Source: Clostridia bacterium (lineage in GTDB: Bacteria; Bacillota; Clostridia; Christensenellales; UBA1242). Taken from it: DNA of 64,000 bases. A program made the position numbers and the translations under genes. Below, piece by piece: positions 18,263 to 30,283 of this stretch (positions are counted from its first letter, which is position 1; each line of letters starts with the position of its first letter). Location: contig JAFUSR010000004.1 in NCBI GenBank assembly GCA_017467585.1, positions 141,918 through 205,917 on the forward strand, given 5' to 3'. Under the pieces are notes generated by a model. It did no database searches, was not told the origin of the DNA, and saw only the letters and a list, made by a program, of their open reading frames with translations.

Positions 18263-18289
18263 AAAGAACCTGCAGACGCAGGTTTTTTA
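18262..18289. terminator. bidirectional terminator
   Basis: AACCTGC-AGAC-GCAGGTT with an A-run and a T-run. Confidence 0.75.
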
Positions 18290-18496
18290 TTTTCTTTCCT
18301 CAATTAATTTTAAAAGGTTTATTCCAGTTCCGATATGAATATTTATTAGAGTGTCGATTGACTGGGGACTAAATGCATTCATAAGCAAATAGAATTTGTC
18401 TTTAGAAATTTTGCACTTTTTGCAAAATCCTTTTACATCGAGATTGTTTTGTTTCATATAATCTACGATTGTTTTAGAATTTAATTTGACTATCAT
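18287..18496 (-). CDS. small HTH-type DNA-binding protein (Cro/CI-like)
   Basis: 69 aa. Predicted HTH around VKGFCKKCKISKDKFYLLMN. Divergent from an XRE gene. Confidence 0.55.
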   Translation of the reverse strand: MIVKLNSKTIVDYMKQNNLDVKGFCKKCKISKDKFYLLMNAFSPQSIDTLINIHIGTGINLLKLIEERK

Positions 18497-18521
18497 AAGT
18501 AATACCTATACTTTTATTTTA

Positions 18522-18538
18522 TTATGCTAATAGCATAA
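18522..18538. promoter_or_regulatory. palindromic operator candidate O1
   Basis: TTATGCTA-A-TAGCATAA, perfect 8-bp inverted arms. Confidence 0.55.
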
Positions 18539-18550
18539 AGTCAAGTAAAT

Positions 18551-18567
18551 TATGGCTAATAGCCATA
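18551..18567. promoter_or_regulatory. palindromic operator candidate O2
   Basis: TATGGCTA-A-TAGCCATA, perfect 8-bp arms. Same consensus as O1. Overlaps the -10 (TATACT) of the XRE gene. Confidence 0.55.
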
Positions 18568-18577
18568 TACTAATACC

Positions 18578-18781
18578 ATGAATAAATTTACAATTAGATT
18601 AAATGAAACTTTAAAAAGCTTAGGAATGAGTCAGTCTGAACTTGCTCGAAAAATTAATATGTCAGTTAGCATAGTGAACAATTATTGCAGGGGAAGAAGA
18701 GAACCAAGTTTAGATGCGCTTATGCTGATTTGCAAGGCTCTTGATGAAAGTGCAGATTATCTTTTAGGGATTGTTGACTAG
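18578..18781 (+). CDS. XRE-family HTH transcriptional regulator
   Basis: LGMSQSELARKINMSVSIVNNYCRGRREPSLDAL is a classic HTH_3 pattern. Confidence 0.8.
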   Translation: MNKFTIRLNETLKSLGMSQSELARKINMSVSIVNNYCRGRREPSLDALMLICKALDESADYLLGIVD

Positions 18782-20813: not shown

Positions 20814-20841
20814 TTGACTTAATTTGTTTTTATGCTAAAAT
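20814..20841 (+). promoter_or_regulatory. promoter of the tandem-HEPN gene
   Basis: TTGACT-16 nt-TAAAAT with an upstream TGc extended -10. GAGGGGAAGAG SD follows. Confidence 0.6.
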
Positions 20842-20861
20842 ATTATTGATGAGGGGAAGAG

Positions 20862-22655
20862 ATGAGAACTGAAATTGAGAAAAAAATTGCAATTGCAAAA
20901 AGACAAAATAAAATTTTAACAAGAATTTTTGACTGCATAAGCCAAGACAAGTTTAACACAGAATTGCCTCTCGATGACATTGGCATTGGTGCACTTAAAG
21001 ATTTTTGGGTGTATACATCGGGTGTTCTTGGTGTTCAAAATTTTGAAAACGCAAGTGACGAGCTTTCGGTGAAAGAAGTTCGTCAGATTTTGAATGGTCA
21101 ATTCTTTTTAAAAAGACTCACTTCAGAAGAAGCCAAATTAATGAGAAAAGAATTTAAAATTCCAAACTCTGAAGGTGGCAGAAGAAAAGTAGAACTATAT
21201 AATATTCAAGACGGCACATTTAGTTTGAAACATGTTGTGGACCCTTCAAACCGTCAGATTTCGATTTATTTATCTTTAGATTGTGATGGAATTGAATATG
21301 TGTTAGGAGATAAAGAAGTTTCAATTGATGGCACCGACGAAGAAGTTTTGATGCTTTATAAAACAATCAGAAACATTATTGTTCATTCAACCCCATATTT
21401 AAGTCAAGACAAAACAAAAGTCATTTTTGTTGGTCAAAAATATGTTAAAGAAGAGGATAGATATGTTCCCGAGTTTTTAACCATTTCAAAAATGTGGCTG
21501 AGGGGCTTTTCTGAACTTTTTGCCGACACCCACACAAAAATTTCTGCAGAACAAATTGAAAAACTGTTAACAACTTATTATTTTTCTGCAGATGCAATTG
21601 TAGATGAAAGAGGGTTGGAAAGAGCCTTGTTTTCTATTAAAGATCATTTGCCACCATCTATTTGTGATAACATTTCTCGTGAGATGGTTTATCTTGTTAA
21701 AGACAACATTGTTTGTTATGATAAGTTCTATCAAAAAGATTCAGTTAGCCAAACCAAAATCATATCTAATTTGCTTGCAAATCACATTGCGCTAAACTTA
21801 AAATATCCAAAAACAATTAACCTTCCAATAATCTATAAAATTCAGCAACTTGTTGCAAAAAAGTTAAATGAACGTGGACAGAGAGAAGACATTGACATTT
21901 TTGATAATGAGAAGACTTATGGAGAAGAAAAGTTAACCGCTAGGCAAGTTATTGAAATGGCAAAGTCATTAATAGCACAACGTGAACATGTTCTGACATA
22001 TGGTGGACTTGACCGCATTCGCAGAGCAAGAATTTTATCAGAAATCGGCAGGCTTAAAGAAGACATTAAGAATGTAGAAATCAATGAACAAAAAATCAAA
22101 GACATGCTCAAAAGCGAAACATTGCACATGAATTTGTTTAAGCCAGAAGGGCTTGAAAACTTGCCTGTTGAAGTTGGTTTTAATGTTGTTTGTCTTGCCG
22201 CTTATAATGCGCTTGTTACAAGTGGCTTTTATGAGGACATTTTGCATAACCTAGACTTTAACAGCATGTCTAAAGAATATGGCGATATTTTCAGACGAAT
22301 TCATCTCAATGGTTTGACATATGCAAACAGGCCATATACAAACGTTAGAAGGGCGGGAATTAATGTTGGAAACACAGCATATCTGCTTGAATGCATGAGA
22401 AATGCACTTGTTCATGGCACGGTTAGTTATAAGGTTCCAGCAGAACTTTATGGTGCAAATCCTACCTTTAAAGATGCCGTTATTACTTTTAAATCTAATT
22501 CAGCGCACGTTGTTATTAACGGAAATATGGAAGACATGTTTAAGTTGTTTACATCTGGTGGTTTTTTCGCAAGTAGAAGAGAGATAGACCCAGAAATTGT
22601 TGAAGAAATCCATCACCAAAAATATTCTGACGAAGGACAACCAGGAGATGAATAA
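20862..22655 (+). CDS. uncharacterised 597-aa protein with two R-N-x-x-x-H (HEPN-type) motifs
   Basis: TIRNIIVHS (R170-H175, nt 21369-21386) and CMRNALVHG (R513-H518, nt 22398-22415). Has its own promoter and terminator. Confidence 0.85.
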   Translation: MRTEIEKKIAIAKRQNKILTRIFDCISQDKFNTELPLDDIGIGALKDFWVYTSGVLGVQNFENASDELSVKEVRQILNGQFFLKRLTSEEAKLMRKEFKIPNSEGGRRKVELYNIQDGTFSLKHVVDPSNRQISIYLSLDCDGIEYVLGDKEVSIDGTDEEVLMLYKTIRNIIVHSTPYLSQDKTKVIFVGQKYVKEEDRYVPEFLTISKMWLRGFSELFADTHTKISAEQIEKLLTTYYFSADAIVDERGLERALFSIKDHLPPSICDNISREMVYLVKDNIVCYDKFYQKDSVSQTKIISNLLANHIALNLKYPKTINLPIIYKIQQLVAKKLNERGQREDIDIFDNEKTYGEEKLTARQVIEMAKSLIAQREHVLTYGGLDRIRRARILSEIGRLKEDIKNVEINEQKIKDMLKSETLHMNLFKPEGLENLPVEVGFNVVCLAAYNALVTSGFYEDILHNLDFNSMSKEYGDIFRRIHLNGLTYANRPYTNVRRAGINVGNTAYLLECMRNALVHGTVSYKVPAELYGANPTFKDAVITFKSNSAHVVINGNMEDMFKLFTSGGFFASRREIDPEIVEEIHHQKYSDEGQPGDE

Positions 22656-22685
22656 AAAAAACAGCCAAATGGCTGTTTTTTTGTT
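22654..22685. terminator. bidirectional terminator shared by the HEPN gene and the tRNA transcript
   Basis: ACAGCC-AAAT-GGCTGT with an A-run and a T-run. Confidence 0.75.
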
Positions 22686-22761
22686 TGGAGCTAATGACGG
22701 GACTTGAACCCGTGACCTCCGCTTGTGCCGTGGCGGTGCACATTGGACTGTGCTGCTTGGC
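22686..22761 (-). pseudogene. degenerate tRNA-Thr-derived tRNA-like element
   Basis: The 3' 37 nt are identical to tRNA-Thr (T arm, 3' acceptor strand, CCA). D stem and 5' anticodon stem are conserved. The acceptor pairs only 4/7, the D-loop GG is lost, and the anticodon loop is enlarged (ACGGCACA). Confidence 0.6.
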
Positions 22762-22767
22762 GCGTTC

Positions 22768-22843
22768 TGGAGCTAATGACGGGACTTGAACCCGTGACCT
22801 CCGCCTTACCAAGGCGGTGCACTACCGACTGTGCTACATTAGC
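22768..22843 (-). tRNA. tRNA-Thr (anticodon GGU), CCA encoded
   Basis: Manual cloverleaf: GCTAATG/CATTAGC acceptor, GCAC/GTGC D stem, CCGCC-TTGGTAA-GGCGG anticodon arm, ACGGG-TTCAAGT-CCCGT T arm. 76 nt. Confidence 0.93.
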
Positions 22844-22904
22844 AAACTAATTATTCGCAAATAGAATGCGAGTGTCGTTGCGTATTTTACGCGACTACCT
22901 GTAA

Positions 22905-22934
22905 AGTATATATTTATTGTGCTGTTTTTGTCAA
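22905..22934 (-). promoter_or_regulatory. candidate promoter for the tRNA-Thr transcript
   Basis: On the minus strand: TTGACA-18 nt-TATACT, about 60 nt upstream of the tRNA. Confidence 0.5.
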
Positions 22935-23001
22935 GATATTTTTTGTTATAAGTTTTTTATTAGCTATTGAAAAATATAATTTTGTGTTATATAATTAAAT
23001 T

Positions 23002-23454
23002 ATGACAAAACTAGAAAGAACAAAATATAAAGTTTGCACCAAATATGGTGAGTTTGAAATCTATAAAGAAGAAGAGCCCGTAAGCAATATGGAAAGTAGG
23101 GGCTATTTATATATCTTAAAAAATGAAAGAGAAGTCTCAGCTCTTACTTATGCAATTTCTCAACTTACAAATCTCGCCACATTAGAAAGTATTGCCACAA
23201 TTGATGATTGTGAAGGCAATGGATATGGCAGCGCATTGCTTTATGCATTAACATTGGAGTGCAAGAAGAAGAATGTTACAAGCATTTTCGGTAGTTTTAG
23301 CCCTAGCAGAGATGTTGAGAAGACAAGACGATTTTACCAGAACAATGGTTATGAGGTTTATGATGATGATAAAAACAGACATAGACTCAGAGCATATGTG
23401 CCAAAACTATACATGGTTCAATCACAAATGCCATCTCAAATTGGAGCAGAATAA
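23002..23454 (+). CDS. GNAT-family N-acetyltransferase (small)
   Basis: GNGYGSALLYAL acetyl-CoA-binding-type motif and ..FYQNNGY.. C-terminal motif. Confidence 0.6.
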   Translation: MTKLERTKYKVCTKYGEFEIYKEEEPVSNMESRGYLYILKNEREVSALTYAISQLTNLATLESIATIDDCEGNGYGSALLYALTLECKKKNVTSIFGSFSPSRDVEKTRRFYQNNGYEVYDDDKNRHRLRAYVPKLYMVQSQMPSQIGAE

Positions 23455-23455
23455 T

Positions 23456-23490
23456 AAAAACCACATTATTTTCAATGTGGTTTTTTGTTT
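23456..23490 (+). terminator. intrinsic terminator
   Basis: AAAACCACATT-ATTTTC-AATGTGGTTTT. Confidence 0.75.
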
Positions 23491-23552
23491 TCAATCGTTT
23501 TTATATTGTTTTATATGTTTGATATAACAATAGTATTATTTAACTTTGCAGC

Positions 23553-23580
23553 AAAAAACCACCCGAGTGGGGTGGTTGAT
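23553..23580 (-). terminator. intrinsic terminator
   Basis: AACCACCC / GGGTGGTT stem. T-run on the minus strand. Confidence 0.7.
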
Positions 23581-23587
23581 TGTTTGG

Positions 23588-24241
23588 TTAGTCGCCAGGT
23601 TGTTGAGAGTTTTTATATCTAGTTGCTTCAGCCATGATATATGAAATTGTACCATACAAGATGTCGTCTTCTTTTGCTTCGCCTGAGGTAATAATTCCAT
23701 CTCGAAATGTTTCCCACCATTCGTTTTGTTTCAATAATCTACGTGGCGCAAAAAGTTGCCAAATTATGCTATTAGTATATTGGAATGGTACTTCGCTTGC
23801 CACTTCGTTGGCAATTGAGATATATTCAATGCCATCTTTTAAATGTTTGCTCATTACACTAATTAGACCGTCATAAACTTTTTTAGCCTGATCTGAGTAA
23901 GCATATTCTATTAAAGCCAATTTTATTAATTCTTTATTTAAGTGTTTTTTGTCATAATCGAAAGGCTGATCGCTCATACCAGCGCTGCACCAATTACGTT
24001 CCCAAGATGATATAAACATCAAATCTTGAATTACTGCTTTTGAAACGACTTCTTTATTTGTTTTTTTGTCGACACAACTTATGGTTTTGGTATCTTTATC
24101 TTTCATAATAGGATAAGTCTGTTTTGTTTTTTTGTCAAGAATGCGCATTTCACCAGTTTCGTGATTTATTTGCAATGCATATTTTTCTTTAAGCTCTCTT
24201 AATTGGTCTAATTTATGTTTTGCCATTTGTTTTTCCCCCAT
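23588..24241 (-). CDS. hypothetical protein (217 aa)
   Basis: Uninterrupted ORF bracketed by terminators. The alternative start at 24226 (MAKHK..) has a GGGGGA SD. Confidence 0.6.
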   Translation of the reverse strand: MGEKQMAKHKLDQLRELKEKYALQINHETGEMRILDKKTKQTYPIMKDKDTKTISCVDKKTNKEVVSKAVIQDLMFISSWERNWCSAGMSDQPFDYDKKHLNKELIKLALIEYAYSDQAKKVYDGLISVMSKHLKDGIEYISIANEVASEVPFQYTNSIIWQLFAPRRLLKQNEWWETFRDGIITSGEAKEDDILYGTISYIMAEATRYKNSQQPGD

Positions 24242-24293
24242 ATGTTTTATAATACAATAATATCATATAAATTTGTTATTGTAAAGATTTTTT

Positions 24294-24322
24294 AAAAAAT
24301 CACCCGGTGGGGTGGTTTTTGT
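24294..24322 (-). terminator. intrinsic terminator
   Basis: CACCC-GGTG-GGGTG stem with flanking A- and T-runs. Confidence 0.6.
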
Positions 24323-24329
24323 GTTAAAT

Positions 24330-25067
24330 TTAATTCCAAGCGTTCATGTTTGGAGCAGGGGTTCTACCCTTTGCGGTGAGAACTTCGTTCATTGACACAC
24401 CAACTTTGTATAGTGTTACTTGAAAGTCGATATTGCTGTCATCTTTTACTTCTTCTGTTTTGTCACTTGTGTAATACTCTAACAAGCAAATGTGACTATC
24501 TTTTGCGAAATAGAAGAGTTGGTGGTTATAGGTTGTTCCGTGTTCATAAACATAGTCCCAAACAATGCATTCAACATTATCTTCGCCAACAGTGATTGTT
24601 TCGTTGTCGAGTTGAGTTACTGTGACAGCAGGATTGTCAGTGATGTTGTTTACGTCAGAAATTCCACGGCTTGTCCAGCGGTAAGCTCCTGGGCCATAAC
24701 GATGATTTACAAATTCATACATAGATTCACTATTGAAATTGTTTTCTTGATAGTCATCAGCAATAATCCAATTTGTGCCATTCCAAGCGGCTGTAATATA
24801 ACCTTGTCCACCATAGCCTGGTTGAGGGAACACCTCATTTCTTAAGTTTTGTTTTGCAAAGATATCGCTACCATGGTGACAACCTTGTGCAAATTCATAT
24901 TGGCCATCTTTTGCATAAACTTTGCCTTCTGCCTCAATCCAGAATTGACTTAGATTTACATATTGGATTCTGTAAGAAATTGGGTCGCTCTTTTTCCCGC
25001 AGGCGGCAAAAGCCAACGATGTGAAGGCGAGCATAAAGCATGCAAGAATTGTTAAAAGTTTTTTCAT
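24330..25067 (-). CDS. lipoprotein, unknown function
   Basis: Signal peptide with lipobox (LAFAAC). Confidence 0.7.
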   Translation of the reverse strand: MKKLLTILACFMLAFTSLAFAACGKKSDPISYRIQYVNLSQFWIEAEGKVYAKDGQYEFAQGCHHGSDIFAKQNLRNEVFPQPGYGGQGYITAAWNGTNWIIADDYQENNFNSESMYEFVNHRYGPGAYRWTSRGISDVNNITDNPAVTVTQLDNETITVGEDNVECIVWDYVYEHGTTYNHQLFYFAKDSHICLLEYYTSDKTEEVKDDSNIDFQVTLYKVGVSMNEVLTAKGRTPAPNMNAWN

Positions 25068-25211
25068 GAATATTTCCCCTTAAAATATATTTTGCACGAT
25101 TTATTCAGTATTCTGATTTTATTATTAGCATATAAGAAACTAATATTGCAACAAAATATAGGCAACAATAAGAAAAACACCGCGAAGTTGCGGTGTTTTT
25201 GTGCTAAATTT

Positions 25212-27984: not shown

Positions 27985-28482
27985 CTAAAATTTTGTTACT
28001 TTTTTGTTCTCATAGACGCAAAATGTGAAGTTTAATCCATTTTCTTCAAACACTTGGCTTTGTGCAGCCAGCCTCCAGTTTGGCTTTTTGTCTAGATTGT
28101 TTATGTAGGTGTCGGCCGGTTTTTCTGCGTTAATTTTTGTGATATATGCCAGACGGCAATTATCCATAAGCAGGTTATAAACGCTTGCTCCGCCAATTAC
28201 AAAAACATTTTCTGTGTCATATTTTTTGAGCTCGGCAGAAAGTTCATCTAGCGAAGAGACACAGATTGCACCATCATATTTGTTGCCATCGGCAGAAAGA
28301 ACAATGTTTGTTCTGTTAGGAAGTGGTTTTTTAGGCAGAGACAAATAGGTTCGCTCGCCCATGACAACAACTTTTCCACTTGTCATTTTTTTGAAATAGG
28401 CAAGGTCACTTGGCAGGTTATAAATGAGGCCTCCCTTTTTTCCGATTGCCCAGTTGTTATCTACTGCTACAATAAAGTTCAT
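27985..28482 (-). CDS. folA: dihydrofolate reductase
   Basis: MNFIVAVDNNWAIGKKGGL..VVMGERTY.. typical DHFR motifs. Confidence 0.9.
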   Translation of the reverse strand: MNFIVAVDNNWAIGKKGGLIYNLPSDLAYFKKMTSGKVVVMGERTYLSLPKKPLPNRTNIVLSADGNKYDGAICVSSLDELSAELKKYDTENVFVIGGASVYNLLMDNCRLAYITKINAEKPADTYINNLDKKPNWRLAAQSQVFEENGLNFTFCVYENKKVTKF

Positions 28483-28491
28483 AAATTTCTC

Positions 28492-29322
28492 CTAAACAGC
28501 GACTTCAATTTTATATTTCTTTTCGCAACACTTATAGTCAACAAGTTTAAAACTGTCAACAGTAAAGTCATAAAAATTTTTGATAGATTTGTCAATTTCC
28601 AGCCTTGGGGCTTTATATTGTTTGTGCTTTAAAATTTCTTTAACAAGAGGAATATGTCTGTCGTAGATGTGTGCGTCGGCAATTACGTGAACAAACTCGC
28701 CAACTTCAAGTCCAGAAACTTGAGCCATCATGTGAACCAAAATTGCATATTGGCAAACGTTCCAGTTGTTGGCGGTTAGCATGTCTTGTGAGCGTTGGTT
28801 TAAAATGGCGTTTAGTTTTCCACCAGAGACGTTAAAGGTCATTGAATATGCGCAAGGGTAGAGGCCCATTTCGCTTAGGTCGTGGTGGTTATAAATGTTT
28901 GTGATTATGCGTCTTGATGATGGATTGTTTTTTAAGTCGTAGAGAACACGGTCAACTTGGTCGAACATTCCCTCAGCATATTTGTGTTTAACTCCAAGTT
29001 GATAGCCATAGGCCTTTCCGATTGTTCCATTTTCGTCTGCCCAACTGTCCCAAACGTGGCTGTGAAGGTCTTTAATGTTGTTGCTCTTTTTTTGCCATAT
29101 CCAAAGAAGCTCGTCGATGCAATTTTTAAATGCTGTTTTTCGAATTGTCATAATTGGAAATTCTTTAGACAGGTCGTAGCGGTTGACAACACAGAATTTT
29201 TTTATGGTGTGGGCTGGGGTTCCGTCGAGCCATTTTGGACGAACCTTTTGGTCGGTATCCCAAACGCCGTGTTTTAAAATTTCTTTGCAGTTTTTAACAA
29301 AATATTTATCTGCTATGCTCAC
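28492..29322 (-). CDS. thyA: thymidylate synthase (ThyA type)
   Basis: ..YPCAYSMTF.. active-site Cys region and DAHIYDRH motif. Confidence 0.9.
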   Translation of the reverse strand: MSIADKYFVKNCKEILKHGVWDTDQKVRPKWLDGTPAHTIKKFCVVNRYDLSKEFPIMTIRKTAFKNCIDELLWIWQKKSNNIKDLHSHVWDSWADENGTIGKAYGYQLGVKHKYAEGMFDQVDRVLYDLKNNPSSRRIITNIYNHHDLSEMGLYPCAYSMTFNVSGGKLNAILNQRSQDMLTANNWNVCQYAILVHMMAQVSGLEVGEFVHVIADAHIYDRHIPLVKEILKHKQYKAPRLEIDKSIKNFYDFTVDSFKLVDYKCCEKKYKIEVAV

Positions 29323-30184
29323 TGTTTTTTTCCTTCATTTTTTCTTGTTCTTTTGCAAGTGTTAATGTGTTAGATAATAACATTGCTATTGTCATTGGGC
29401 CAACGCCGCCAGGCACGGGGGTTATGTAGCTACACTTTGGAGCAACGGAACTATAGTCAACGTCGCCTACAATTCCGTTTTCTGTTCGGTTTATGCCAAC
29501 ATCAATAACCACTGCACCTGTTTTAACCATGTTTGGTGTAACAAAGTTTGGTTTTCCGATTGCAACAATCAAAATGTCGGCTTGGCTTGCAATTTGATCC
29601 AAATTTTGTGTTTTTGAGTGACAAATTGTGACTGTTGCGTTTGCTTGTTCGAGTAAGTTTGCAACGCTTTTTCCAACGAGCAAGCTGCGTCCAATAACAA
29701 CGGCACGCTTGCCAGAAATTTCTATTTGTTTATCTTTTAAAAGTTCCATAATTCCACTGGCCGTGCATGGGGCTATGGTGTGGGTTTTTGAGAAGAGTTT
29801 TCCAAGACAAATATCAGTAAGCGCGTCGGCATCTTTTTGTGGTGGAATAGAGTTCAAAATTTTGCGTTCATTTAGCCCACGAGGGAGTGGGAGTTGCAAA
29901 AGTATTGCAGAAACACTATTGTCTGCAGCAAGTTCTTTTATGCAAGATTCAACTTCTTGCTCTGTTGAATTTGCAGGCAAAACCCTGATTATTGAGCCCA
30001 TGCCTACGGCCCTGCAAGCCTTTTCTTTGCTTGCAACATAAATCTTGCTGGCAGGGTCGTCACCAACGAGAACACAAGCAAGGGCTGGGGGTTGTTTTCC
30101 CTTTTCCAAATAGTCTGTTGCGATTTGTTCTGCAATTTTGTTTTTGAGCCTTGCAGACAGCTCTTTGCCATTTAATATTTCCAT
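29306..30184 (-). CDS. folD: bifunctional methylene-THF dehydrogenase / methenyl-THF cyclohydrolase
   Basis: VGRSLLVGKSVANLL and PGGVGPMTIAMLL motifs. Start placed at ATG 30184 (MEILNGKELS); the ORF track used TTG 30232. The 3' end overlaps thyA by 17 nt. Confidence 0.9.
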   Translation of the reverse strand: MEILNGKELSARLKNKIAEQIATDYLEKGKQPPALACVLVGDDPASKIYVASKEKACRAVGMGSIIRVLPANSTEQEVESCIKELAADNSVSAILLQLPLPRGLNERKILNSIPPQKDADALTDICLGKLFSKTHTIAPCTASGIMELLKDKQIEISGKRAVVIGRSLLVGKSVANLLEQANATVTICHSKTQNLDQIASQADILIVAIGKPNFVTPNMVKTGAVVIDVGINRTENGIVGDVDYSSVAPKCSYITPVPGGVGPMTIAMLLSNTLTLAKEQEKMKEKNSEHSR

Positions 30185-30283
30185 AATTTTATGATAATAA
30201 ATTCTCTCCCCTTGTGTCAAATTTTTGAGCAAGTGTAATAGAAAATTTTAAAAAAGAGTGGATTTATCCACTCTTAATTATTT

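Follow-up and report, generated by a model that had tools for sequence, protein, structure and literature searches.

A small clostridial protein family with two invariant HEPN-type motifs and a housekeeping genomic setting

Does a protein that carries two HEPN-type R-N-x3-H motifs in a single chain cut RNA, and if so, in whose service? The question is raised by a gene at positions 20862..22655 (+ strand, ATG start) of a 64-kb stretch of DNA from a Clostridia bacterium; we refer to this whole stretch as the window. The gene encodes a protein of 597 amino acids (aa), here called P0001. A first-pass annotation, made from the letters of the window, had proposed a stand-alone tandem-HEPN RNase, acting either as an abortive-infection or other defence effector or as a Cas13-ancestor-like protein that works without a guide or with an unlinked one. 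We examined the conservation of the motifs, the predicted fold of the protein, and the genomic behaviour of its relatives. Together, these analyses lead us to favour, tentatively and at somewhat less than an even chance, the view that P0001 is a guide-independent endoribonuclease of an undescribed, vertically inherited family, with a composite HEPN-like site.

Two R-N-x3-H motifs and the family that carries them

P0001 contains exactly two matches to R-N-x3-H, and the same two are its sole matches to the wider pattern R-x4-6-H; from the composition of the protein, 0.04 R-N-x3-H motifs would be expected by chance. Motif 1, RNIIVH, runs from R170 to H175 (21369..21386, +; family consensus iRNxxAH), and motif 2, RNALVH, runs from R513 to H518 (22398..22415, +; family consensus iR[NDHQEST]AxCH), which are the places where the first-pass annotation had put them. 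The two arginines are 343 aa apart, and H518 lies 79 aa from the C-terminus. The motif helices share the consensus iRNxxAH[SG], the canonical HEPN signature, and resemble each other over 12 columns (hhalign E 3.6e-4).

Conservation of these arginines and histidines among homologs had been suggested as a check on the original proposal, and it was borne out. Across 42 full-length members, reaching down to 21% identity, nine columns are invariant: G79, L139, R170, H175, W212, R214, G215, R513 and H518. All four pre-specified residues are thus among them, an outcome whose chance among ~597 columns is ~2e-8 by simple combinatorics. A sister clade (P0063 and P0093), at 19-20% identity to the family, keeps both R/H pairs and N171 as well; N171 is nearly invariant among the 42 members and invariant in the alignment to which the sister clade has been added. 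The residue that follows R513 is always polar: the 42 members have N, D, H, Q, E or S there, and the sister clade has T. As judged from these alignments, the four R/H residues are conserved at the level of the family far beyond chance. HEPN domains are four-helix up-down bundles with an Rx4-6H motif in which a polar residue (N, D or H) stands straight after the arginine (PMC3710099); at the level of sequence, a conserved Rx4-6H with a polar residue at R+1 is found in the family twice.

A further conserved element, M211-W-L-R-G215 (21492..21506, +), lies on the helix that follows a predicted hairpin, and its W212, R214 and G215 are invariant in the 42-member alignment. Since serine replaces R214 in the distant relative P0063, which reads WLSGF, this arginine is conserved less deeply than the R/H pairs. 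We regard R214 as a candidate auxiliary active-site arginine. A reading of the tripeptides HST and HGT as 2H-phosphoesterase motifs (H-x-T/S) was considered and rejected, because the T is not conserved.

The family is tiny, isolated and unannotated, without a profile or a solved-structure neighbour, and is restricted to a limited set of uncultured Clostridia from gut and rumen. When 5.8 billion clusters were queried by a word-indexed search, 11 proteins came back, 582-628 aa long and 27-64% identical to P0001, all of them without a Pfam domain and without a name. Among 1.84 billion representatives, an exhaustive hidden Markov model (HMM) search found 59 proteins, nearly all of them full-length (~560-690 aa), and nothing further out. 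Where members carry a name at all, it is without exception 'hypothetical protein [Clostridia bacterium]'. The species-representative genomes that encode the family are 13 'Clostridia bacterium' metagenome-assembled genomes (MAGs) from rumen, colon and human gut. A search seeded with the sister-clade protein P0063 added a single protein, again in a housekeeping context.

In the window genome the gene is monocistronic, since the DegV gene upstream is divergent and the tRNA-Thr gene downstream (22768-22843, -) is convergent. A putative sigma-70-type promoter-like site (20814..20841, +) matches the consensus at 10 of 12 positions and consists of TTGACT (20814-20819), a spacer of 16 nucleotides (nt) and the extended -10 element TGcTAAAAT (20833-20841), in which TG precedes the -10 hexamer. 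A Shine-Dalgarno-like GAGGGG (20851..20856, +), read from the sequence, ends 5 nt ahead of the ATG. Downstream, a bidirectional intrinsic-terminator hairpin (~22650..22686) with flanking A- and T-runs is common to the P0001 gene and the convergent tRNA-Thr unit; its folding energy is -15.5 kcal/mol (z = -4.2), and it does not figure among the results of a consensus scan. The promoter and the two-way terminator that the first-pass annotation had ascribed to a monocistronic gene are therefore both present as signals.

Predicted architecture and a proposed composite site

The AlphaFold2 model of the full chain has a mean predicted local distance difference test score (pLDDT) of 79.7 and a predicted template modelling score (pTM) of 0.83, the latter indicating a defined arrangement of modules; a model of the C-terminal module by itself (pLDDT 81.5, pTM 0.81) agrees with it. 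The chain is predicted to begin with an N-terminal alpha/beta module (aa 1-228; 20862..21545, +) and to continue, according to predicted secondary structure, with a central all-helical region (aa 229-419; 21546..22118, +). A C-terminal alpha/beta module (aa 420-576; 22119..22589, +) appears in both the full and the module-only models, and a disordered acidic tail follows (22590..22652, +; pLDDT <50 for aa 577-597).

Within the N-module, early helices are predicted to be separated from the motif helix (159-175) by a five-strand beta-meander insert (aa 109-153), and a beta-hairpin (186-209) and a helix (210-219) come next. The C-module is modelled as helices, one strand, the motif helix (502-517), strands with a hairpin, and a helix (556-563). 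Apart from the insert of the N-module, the predicted order of elements is alike in the two. The location of a HEPN motif at the C-terminal end of its helix is predicted for both copies: H175 is the last residue of helix 159-175, and helix 502-517 closes with A515-L516-V517, directly followed by H518. After each motif the model places a beta-hairpin and then another helix. When the two modules were compared as possible products of a duplication, hhalign aligned only the 12 motif columns, and global and alternative alignments were insignificant. Because hhalign reaches just these columns, it is the order of secondary-structure elements that argues for an internal duplication.

The central region combines a conserved helix (aa 321-341, with the sequence IIYKIQQLVA) with a variable long helical hairpin (aa 360-416), and the conservation score is 0.55 for aa 316-342 versus 0.29 for aa 343-419. 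Y325 is nearly invariant among the 42 members, and Y325 and Q328 are both invariant in alignments of 11 and of 5 sequences. The tail ends in Q-P-G-D-E (22638-22652); tails of the family have a median net charge of -4, and ~60% of members have QPGD-like C-terminal endings, which come after a disordered acidic linker. Within the window, endings of the type Q-P-G-D(-E) occur in only two proteins, P0001 (22638-22652, +) and a product of a 217-aa open reading frame (ORF) whose ending lies at 23588-23602 (-), ~1 kb apart. A local (recent) DNA duplication as the source of the pair was rejected, as the codons differ. The QPGD(E) tail may be a short linear docking motif.

If P0001 is an endoribonuclease, we infer the juxtaposition of the two motifs, the RNase chemistry and the roles of the arm and tail as follows. 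The N- and C-modules, linked by the helical arm, would each supply one HEPN-type R-(polar)-x3-H motif and would pack together within one polypeptide, so that both motif-bearing helix ends would line one shared cleft, in the manner of the intramolecular HEPN dimers known from Cas13 and from the other clusters described by Yoon et al. H175 and H518 would serve as general acid and base acting at the 2'-OH, and R170 and R513, with N171 and probably R214, would grip the scissile phosphate. Cleavage would be metal-independent and would leave a 2',3'-cyclic phosphate at the product end. The central helical region and the alpha/beta decorations might recognise a substrate or partner, and the acidic QPGD(E) tail might dock a partner or mask the site. 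The protein would be expressed alone or from within housekeeping operons, a pattern that would make RNA processing, turnover or a regulated stress response likelier than a role in a mobile defence cassette.

Genomic setting and competing readings

To place the family in its genomic setting, we compared neighbourhoods at ~20 loci, where the neighbours are housekeeping genes. Synteny holds inside subclades only, and no neighbour is conserved family-wide. In the window and at its closest homolog locus (L008), the order is DegV, family gene, tRNA-Thr. Elsewhere the family gene stands between L9-DUF1540 and the Trp repressor; after L31, PrmC, RF1 and TrpRS; between RecD2-YabP-YabQ-DivIC and the genes for tRNA-Met and tRNA-Glu (L012 and L013); between Alr and RsmD; between CinA-NUDIX and HAD; between TrkH and HAD; between an aldehyde dehydrogenase and DHFR-ThyA-FolD (L010); or between Spo0A and NUDIX-YqeY-TruA. 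The arrangement at L012 and L013 mirrors the B. subtilis yabP-yabQ-divIC-(yabR)-tRNA locus. The family gene is separated from rsmD by 19, -1 and -1 nt, and where it follows divIC or trpS the gap is 15 nt or 68 nt, respectively; co-transcription with these three genes is probable in several subclades. At L017 (11752-11772), L018 and L020, the stop codon that closes the family gene adjoins or overlaps the rsmD start, rsmD being the gene for the 16S rRNA m2G966 methyltransferase; this suggests translational coupling to an rRNA-modification gene in one subclade.

Other adjacencies are of a more scattered kind. In a single case, a transglutaminase-core (PF01841) gene begins 2 nt after the family gene (L009 11725-11728). 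In two different subclades, tRNA genes lie ~30-250 nt downstream of it (L012 11902-12065 and L013 11898-12193, tRNA-Met and tRNA-Glu; the window and L008 2643-2718, tRNA-Thr). The recurrence of a NUDIX neighbour in two subclades was rejected as a signal, the two NUDIX proteins being alike only in the Nudix box, and a link through a neighbouring 201-aa gene at L005 was likewise rejected, its product being an unrelated membrane protein.

The family gene is vertically inherited and syntenic within subclades. The P0001 gene is itself ancestral at its position, because DegV is kept on its left at L008 and DHFR-ThyA-FolD on its right at L010. At the latter locus the family gene directly abuts DHFR-ThyA-FolD, and the same cluster lies at ~27985-30200 in the window. 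A test of core against accessory status, anchored on DegV in metagenome contigs, yielded just four loci, of differing contexts and none with the family gene.

A number of results weigh against a HEPN-type RNase that serves the cell, beginning with the searches that had been suggested as checks on the HEPN assignment. At E<=10, no HEPN profile of Pfam, NCBIfam or PADLOC matched P0001, and HEPN-clan profiles found no match at the same threshold in 11 members, in divergent members or in isolated modules. PADLOC models run against the 42 members gave scattered sub-threshold matches only (RTasHEPN in 2/42, best E 0.028). Foldseek returned nothing significant, whether the full model was compared with PDB and BFVD or the C-module with PDB, and HEPN proteins were not found in the top 50 for either the full model or the C-module. 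The best neighbours were dCache, sCache and PAS sensor domains (E 0.02-0.1, template modelling score <= 0.3, non-significant), and RnlA appeared at noise level (E 0.4, probability 0.08). Both modules are predicted as alpha/beta units with 4- to 8-stranded sheets and not as plain four-helix bundles, and the family is mildly acidic, with a median isoelectric point (pI) of 5.6. The remaining adverse points come from evolution. The family gene evolves much faster than its syntenic neighbours: between orthologous loci it is 31% identical, versus 86% for ThyA, 55% for DHFR and 56% for FolD, and in other syntenic pairs the figures are 34% versus 72% for RecR, 41% versus 75% for L9 (neighbours 75-83%) and 59% versus 95% for RecD2. 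Copies are disrupted at 2 of the ~20 loci, by one in-frame stop, placed where the otherwise intact gene would have its conserved Q116 codon (L011 9932-11710), and by a mid-gene frameshift (L021 9959-11714), which may be recent inactivations or MAG assembly errors. Fast evolution and inactivated copies would be less expected of a core housekeeping enzyme than of a gene that is dispensable or involved in conflict.

Searches of PDB with a single sequence and with three profiles gave chance-level matches only, namely FKBP3, ribosomal protein S8 and a ribosome-inactivating protein (non-colinear), all of which were discarded. Foldseek and HMM methods likewise missed the link between Cas13an and other Cas13 proteins (PMC12165695), and we therefore treat their negative results here as weak evidence. 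The HEPN features of sequence and local structure are present and the global fold is unconfirmed, which leaves the tandem-HEPN RNase of the first-pass annotation plausible on the strength of its motifs (polar R+1, helix end) but, with no HEPN profile or fold match, unproven at fold level.

The tempo of evolution, which is typical of conflict genes (31% versus 55-86%, and 41% versus 75-83%), is among the arguments for a self-contained abortive-infection or defence effector, in which the decorations and arm would respond to a sign of phage by setting free the activity of a HEPN-type RNase, with no need of a partner gene. Such an effector would cut tRNA, rRNA or mRNA, like ApeA, RnlA, AbiD/F or PrrC. 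The two HEPN-type catalytic motifs, the monocistronic state of the P0001 gene in the window, the sporadic inactivated copies and the nearby tRNA genes of two subclades are in keeping with this, and many single-gene HEPN defence proteins exist (PMC3710099). The genomic record, however, argues otherwise. No locus has defence-island, restriction-modification, toxin-antitoxin, integrase or prophage neighbours; at the ~20 loci compared, no MNT-type, antitoxin-like, integrase or restriction-modification gene adjoins the family gene, which sits inside housekeeping operons in several subclades. Searches of IMG/VR, phage records and plasmids found no family relative, and PADLOC and PHROGs scans gave no match. 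Orthologs that are 31% identical are still inherited vertically at conserved positions, and the family is limited to a single narrow lineage and does not show the patchiness of defence genes. We consider a defence effector unlikely, the earlier suggestion of one having gained no support from context. Within the RNase reading as a whole, a cellular role appears somewhat more likely than defence because of the vertical inheritance, the housekeeping operons and the lack of a mobile or defence context, although fast evolution, restriction to one lineage and occasional inactivation would be better fitted by a conflict-related effector.

The same fold searches that tell against HEPN would sit well with a protein that is no nuclease at all. 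P0001 might be a lineage-specific scaffold or sensor, with two PAS/Cache-like alpha/beta modules on a coiled-coil arm, whose R/H pairs would either hold a ligand with a phosphate group, for example a nucleotide or a second messenger, or stabilise the fold, the resemblance to HEPN being convergent. Cache and PAS domains were the sole recurrent Foldseek neighbours, the modules are predicted to be alpha/beta, no HEPN profile matches, the protein is acidic, some neighbours are sporulation or division genes (YabP/YabQ/DivIC, DUF1540, Spo0A), and HEPN domains were originally described as nucleotide-binding. Yet the Cache and PAS matches are at noise level, and two exact copies of the HEPN consensus (h-R-N-x-x-A-H, polar R+1, helix end), which are the most conserved features of a fast-evolving protein, make convergence hard to accept; we regard this explanation as doubtful. 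Far less probable still is a Cas13-like or Cas13-ancestor-like guided RNase that would draw its guide from an unlinked CRISPR array or from some other RNA. The presence of two HEPN-type motifs, one towards each end of a single polypeptide, would agree with it, as would the length of 597 aa, which is near the 429-577 aa of Cas13an (PMC12165695) and makes outdated the earlier remark that compact Cas13 proteins are considerably longer; moreover, some Cas13an genes lack an adjoining array (PMC12165695). Against this, the absence of CRISPR or cas context first noted for the window was upheld there and extended to 15 homolog loci (flanks up to 10 kb), with no CRISPR-like array in either. Rfam scans of the window at gathering and E-value thresholds returned only two tRNAs, RF03085 being among the RNAs absent, and a comparison of flanks between subclades revealed no conserved non-coding element travelling with the gene. 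Alignment to Cas13an sequences, truncated at 400 aa, covered the motif helix only (bit scores <= 10, hhalign probability 6-20%), no Cas13 was among the Foldseek matches, the acidic P0001 differs from the K/R-rich Cas13an sequences, and signature peptides of the family are missing from the supplementary tables of Yoon et al.

Several features of the window lie outside the family itself. A decayed tandem copy of tRNA-Thr(GGT) (22678-22767, -) lies directly 3' of the intact gene, with which it shares a 37-nt exact repeat (22686-22722 = 22768-22804). It has preserved the T-arm, the 3' acceptor strand and CCA, but the anticodon loop and the 5' acceptor strand have degenerated; ARAGORN makes no call, Rfam gives only a sub-threshold isrK match, and the copy is absent in L008. 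The first-pass annotation had placed the P0001 gene in a small accessory patch by the tRNA. The patch is real, but it lies to the right of the tRNA (~22.85-25.1 kb), and the P0001 gene belongs to the ancestral order. This lineage-specific patch (22850-25100), between tRNA-Thr and PPDK, holds genes for a GNAT acetyltransferase (23002-23454, +), the 217-aa ORFan mentioned above for its tail (23588-24241, -) and a 245-aa lipoprotein-like protein (24330-25067, -; N-terminus ending ...LAFAACGKK), none with a counterpart in any homolog locus. Among 5.8 billion clusters the ORFan is found in its own cluster only, and Pfam yields just a sub-threshold match to DUF6945. Further upstream (18287-18781), between an acyl-ACP thioesterase gene and two DegV genes, two small genes are arranged divergently; one is a 69-aa ORF (-) that matches no family, and the other encodes a 67-aa Cro/C1-type helix-turn-helix protein (+, PF01381, E 2e-15).

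Comparison with known HEPN systems

To our knowledge, almost every prokaryotic HEPN protein described so far is part of a conflict system. An analogy for a housekeeping role is eukaryotic: Las1, the rRNA internal transcribed spacer 2 (ITS2) endonuclease, is a housekeeping HEPN nuclease with a HEPN domain and a coiled-coil region, and its conserved C-terminal tail docks the partner Grc3. Las1 is reported to use two HEPN motifs to cut RNA. We have considered whether P0001 could be a bacterial counterpart of Las1, that is, a structurally unprecedented intramolecular two-HEPN RNase, vertically inherited and lineage-wide, with beta-sheet decoration that would hide its HEPN cores from profile and Foldseek searches and with an acidic QPGD(E) tail that would recruit a partner also used by another local protein; we think this rather improbable. 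Las1, a eukaryotic protein, has one HEPN domain per chain and dimerises, and nothing in sequence or structure links it to the family; the likeness is one of analogy only.

Guide-free HEPN effectors of bacteria offer another comparison. AbiD/AbiF (Abi_2, PF07751), ApeA, RnlA/LsoA and PrrC/RloC share with P0001 an RNxxAH-type motif, a stand-alone mode of action (proposed for P0001) and extra non-HEPN domains, which in RnlA are the alpha/beta NTD and NRD domains. They differ in having one HEPN domain per chain and in forming homodimers, and the P0001 family lacks a PF07751 or PADLOC match, the RF03085 RNA, an antitoxin and a defence-island context. In HepT-MntA and RnlA-RnlB modules, an antitoxin gene adjoins in the operon (MNT upstream, RnlB downstream), whereas the P0001 family has no such conserved partner. 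Csx1 (MJ1666-type) and Swt1 are dyads with two HEPN copies per chain, as P0001 would be. Csx1, however, occurs in a CRISPR context and includes a CARF/Rossmann sensor domain, and Swt1 is eukaryotic and has a PIN domain; neither CARF/Rossmann nor PIN was found in the P0001 family.

With Cas13 and Cas13an the family shares two R-N-x3-H motifs near both chain ends; its size is similar to that of Cas13an, whose HEPN2 motif-helix consensus is nearly identical to the iRNxxAHG of the P0001 family. It differs from both in lacking an array, a guide, cas context and domain-level homology, in being acidic and in its housekeeping setting. Whether or not P0001 is a nuclease, it has no bearing on the origin of Cas13. 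If it is none, what remains of interest is a confident predicted fold without a solved neighbour.

The most similar architectures are the single-chain HEPN dyads that Yoon et al. (2024) described in twelve clusters of the AlphaFold database, only two of them CRISPR-linked (PMC12165695). Their non-CRISPR dimers, such as Bacillus A0A1Y6ANL6 (509 aa) and Clostridium G7MBT4 (467 aa), are like P0001 in combining a chain of ~450-600 aa, two HEPN-type motifs, the absence of a CRISPR array, an origin in Firmicutes and an uncharacterised state (PMC12165695). Because signature peptides are missing from the published tables and only the motif helix aligns to the listed sequences, we place the P0001 family, by sequence comparison, outside the twelve clusters; there is no detectable sequence relationship, and large beta-sheet decorations, together with a long helical arm in the centre of the chain, distinguish the family from the dimers of Yoon et al. 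Should P0001 have a composite HEPN site, a new family would join the single-chain HEPN dyads outside CRISPR, adding to the known routes by which HEPN dimers are fused into one chain and showing how far a HEPN core can drift past current profile and fold searches. Clostridia of gut and rumen would also have yielded a compact RNase scaffold that needs no guide. Such a family would be set apart from Cas13, Cas13an and Abi-type RNases both by its architecture, in which alpha/beta-decorated modules are combined with a long helical arm and an acidic tail motif, and by its genomic behaviour, as a vertically inherited and very fast-evolving gene in a housekeeping setting.

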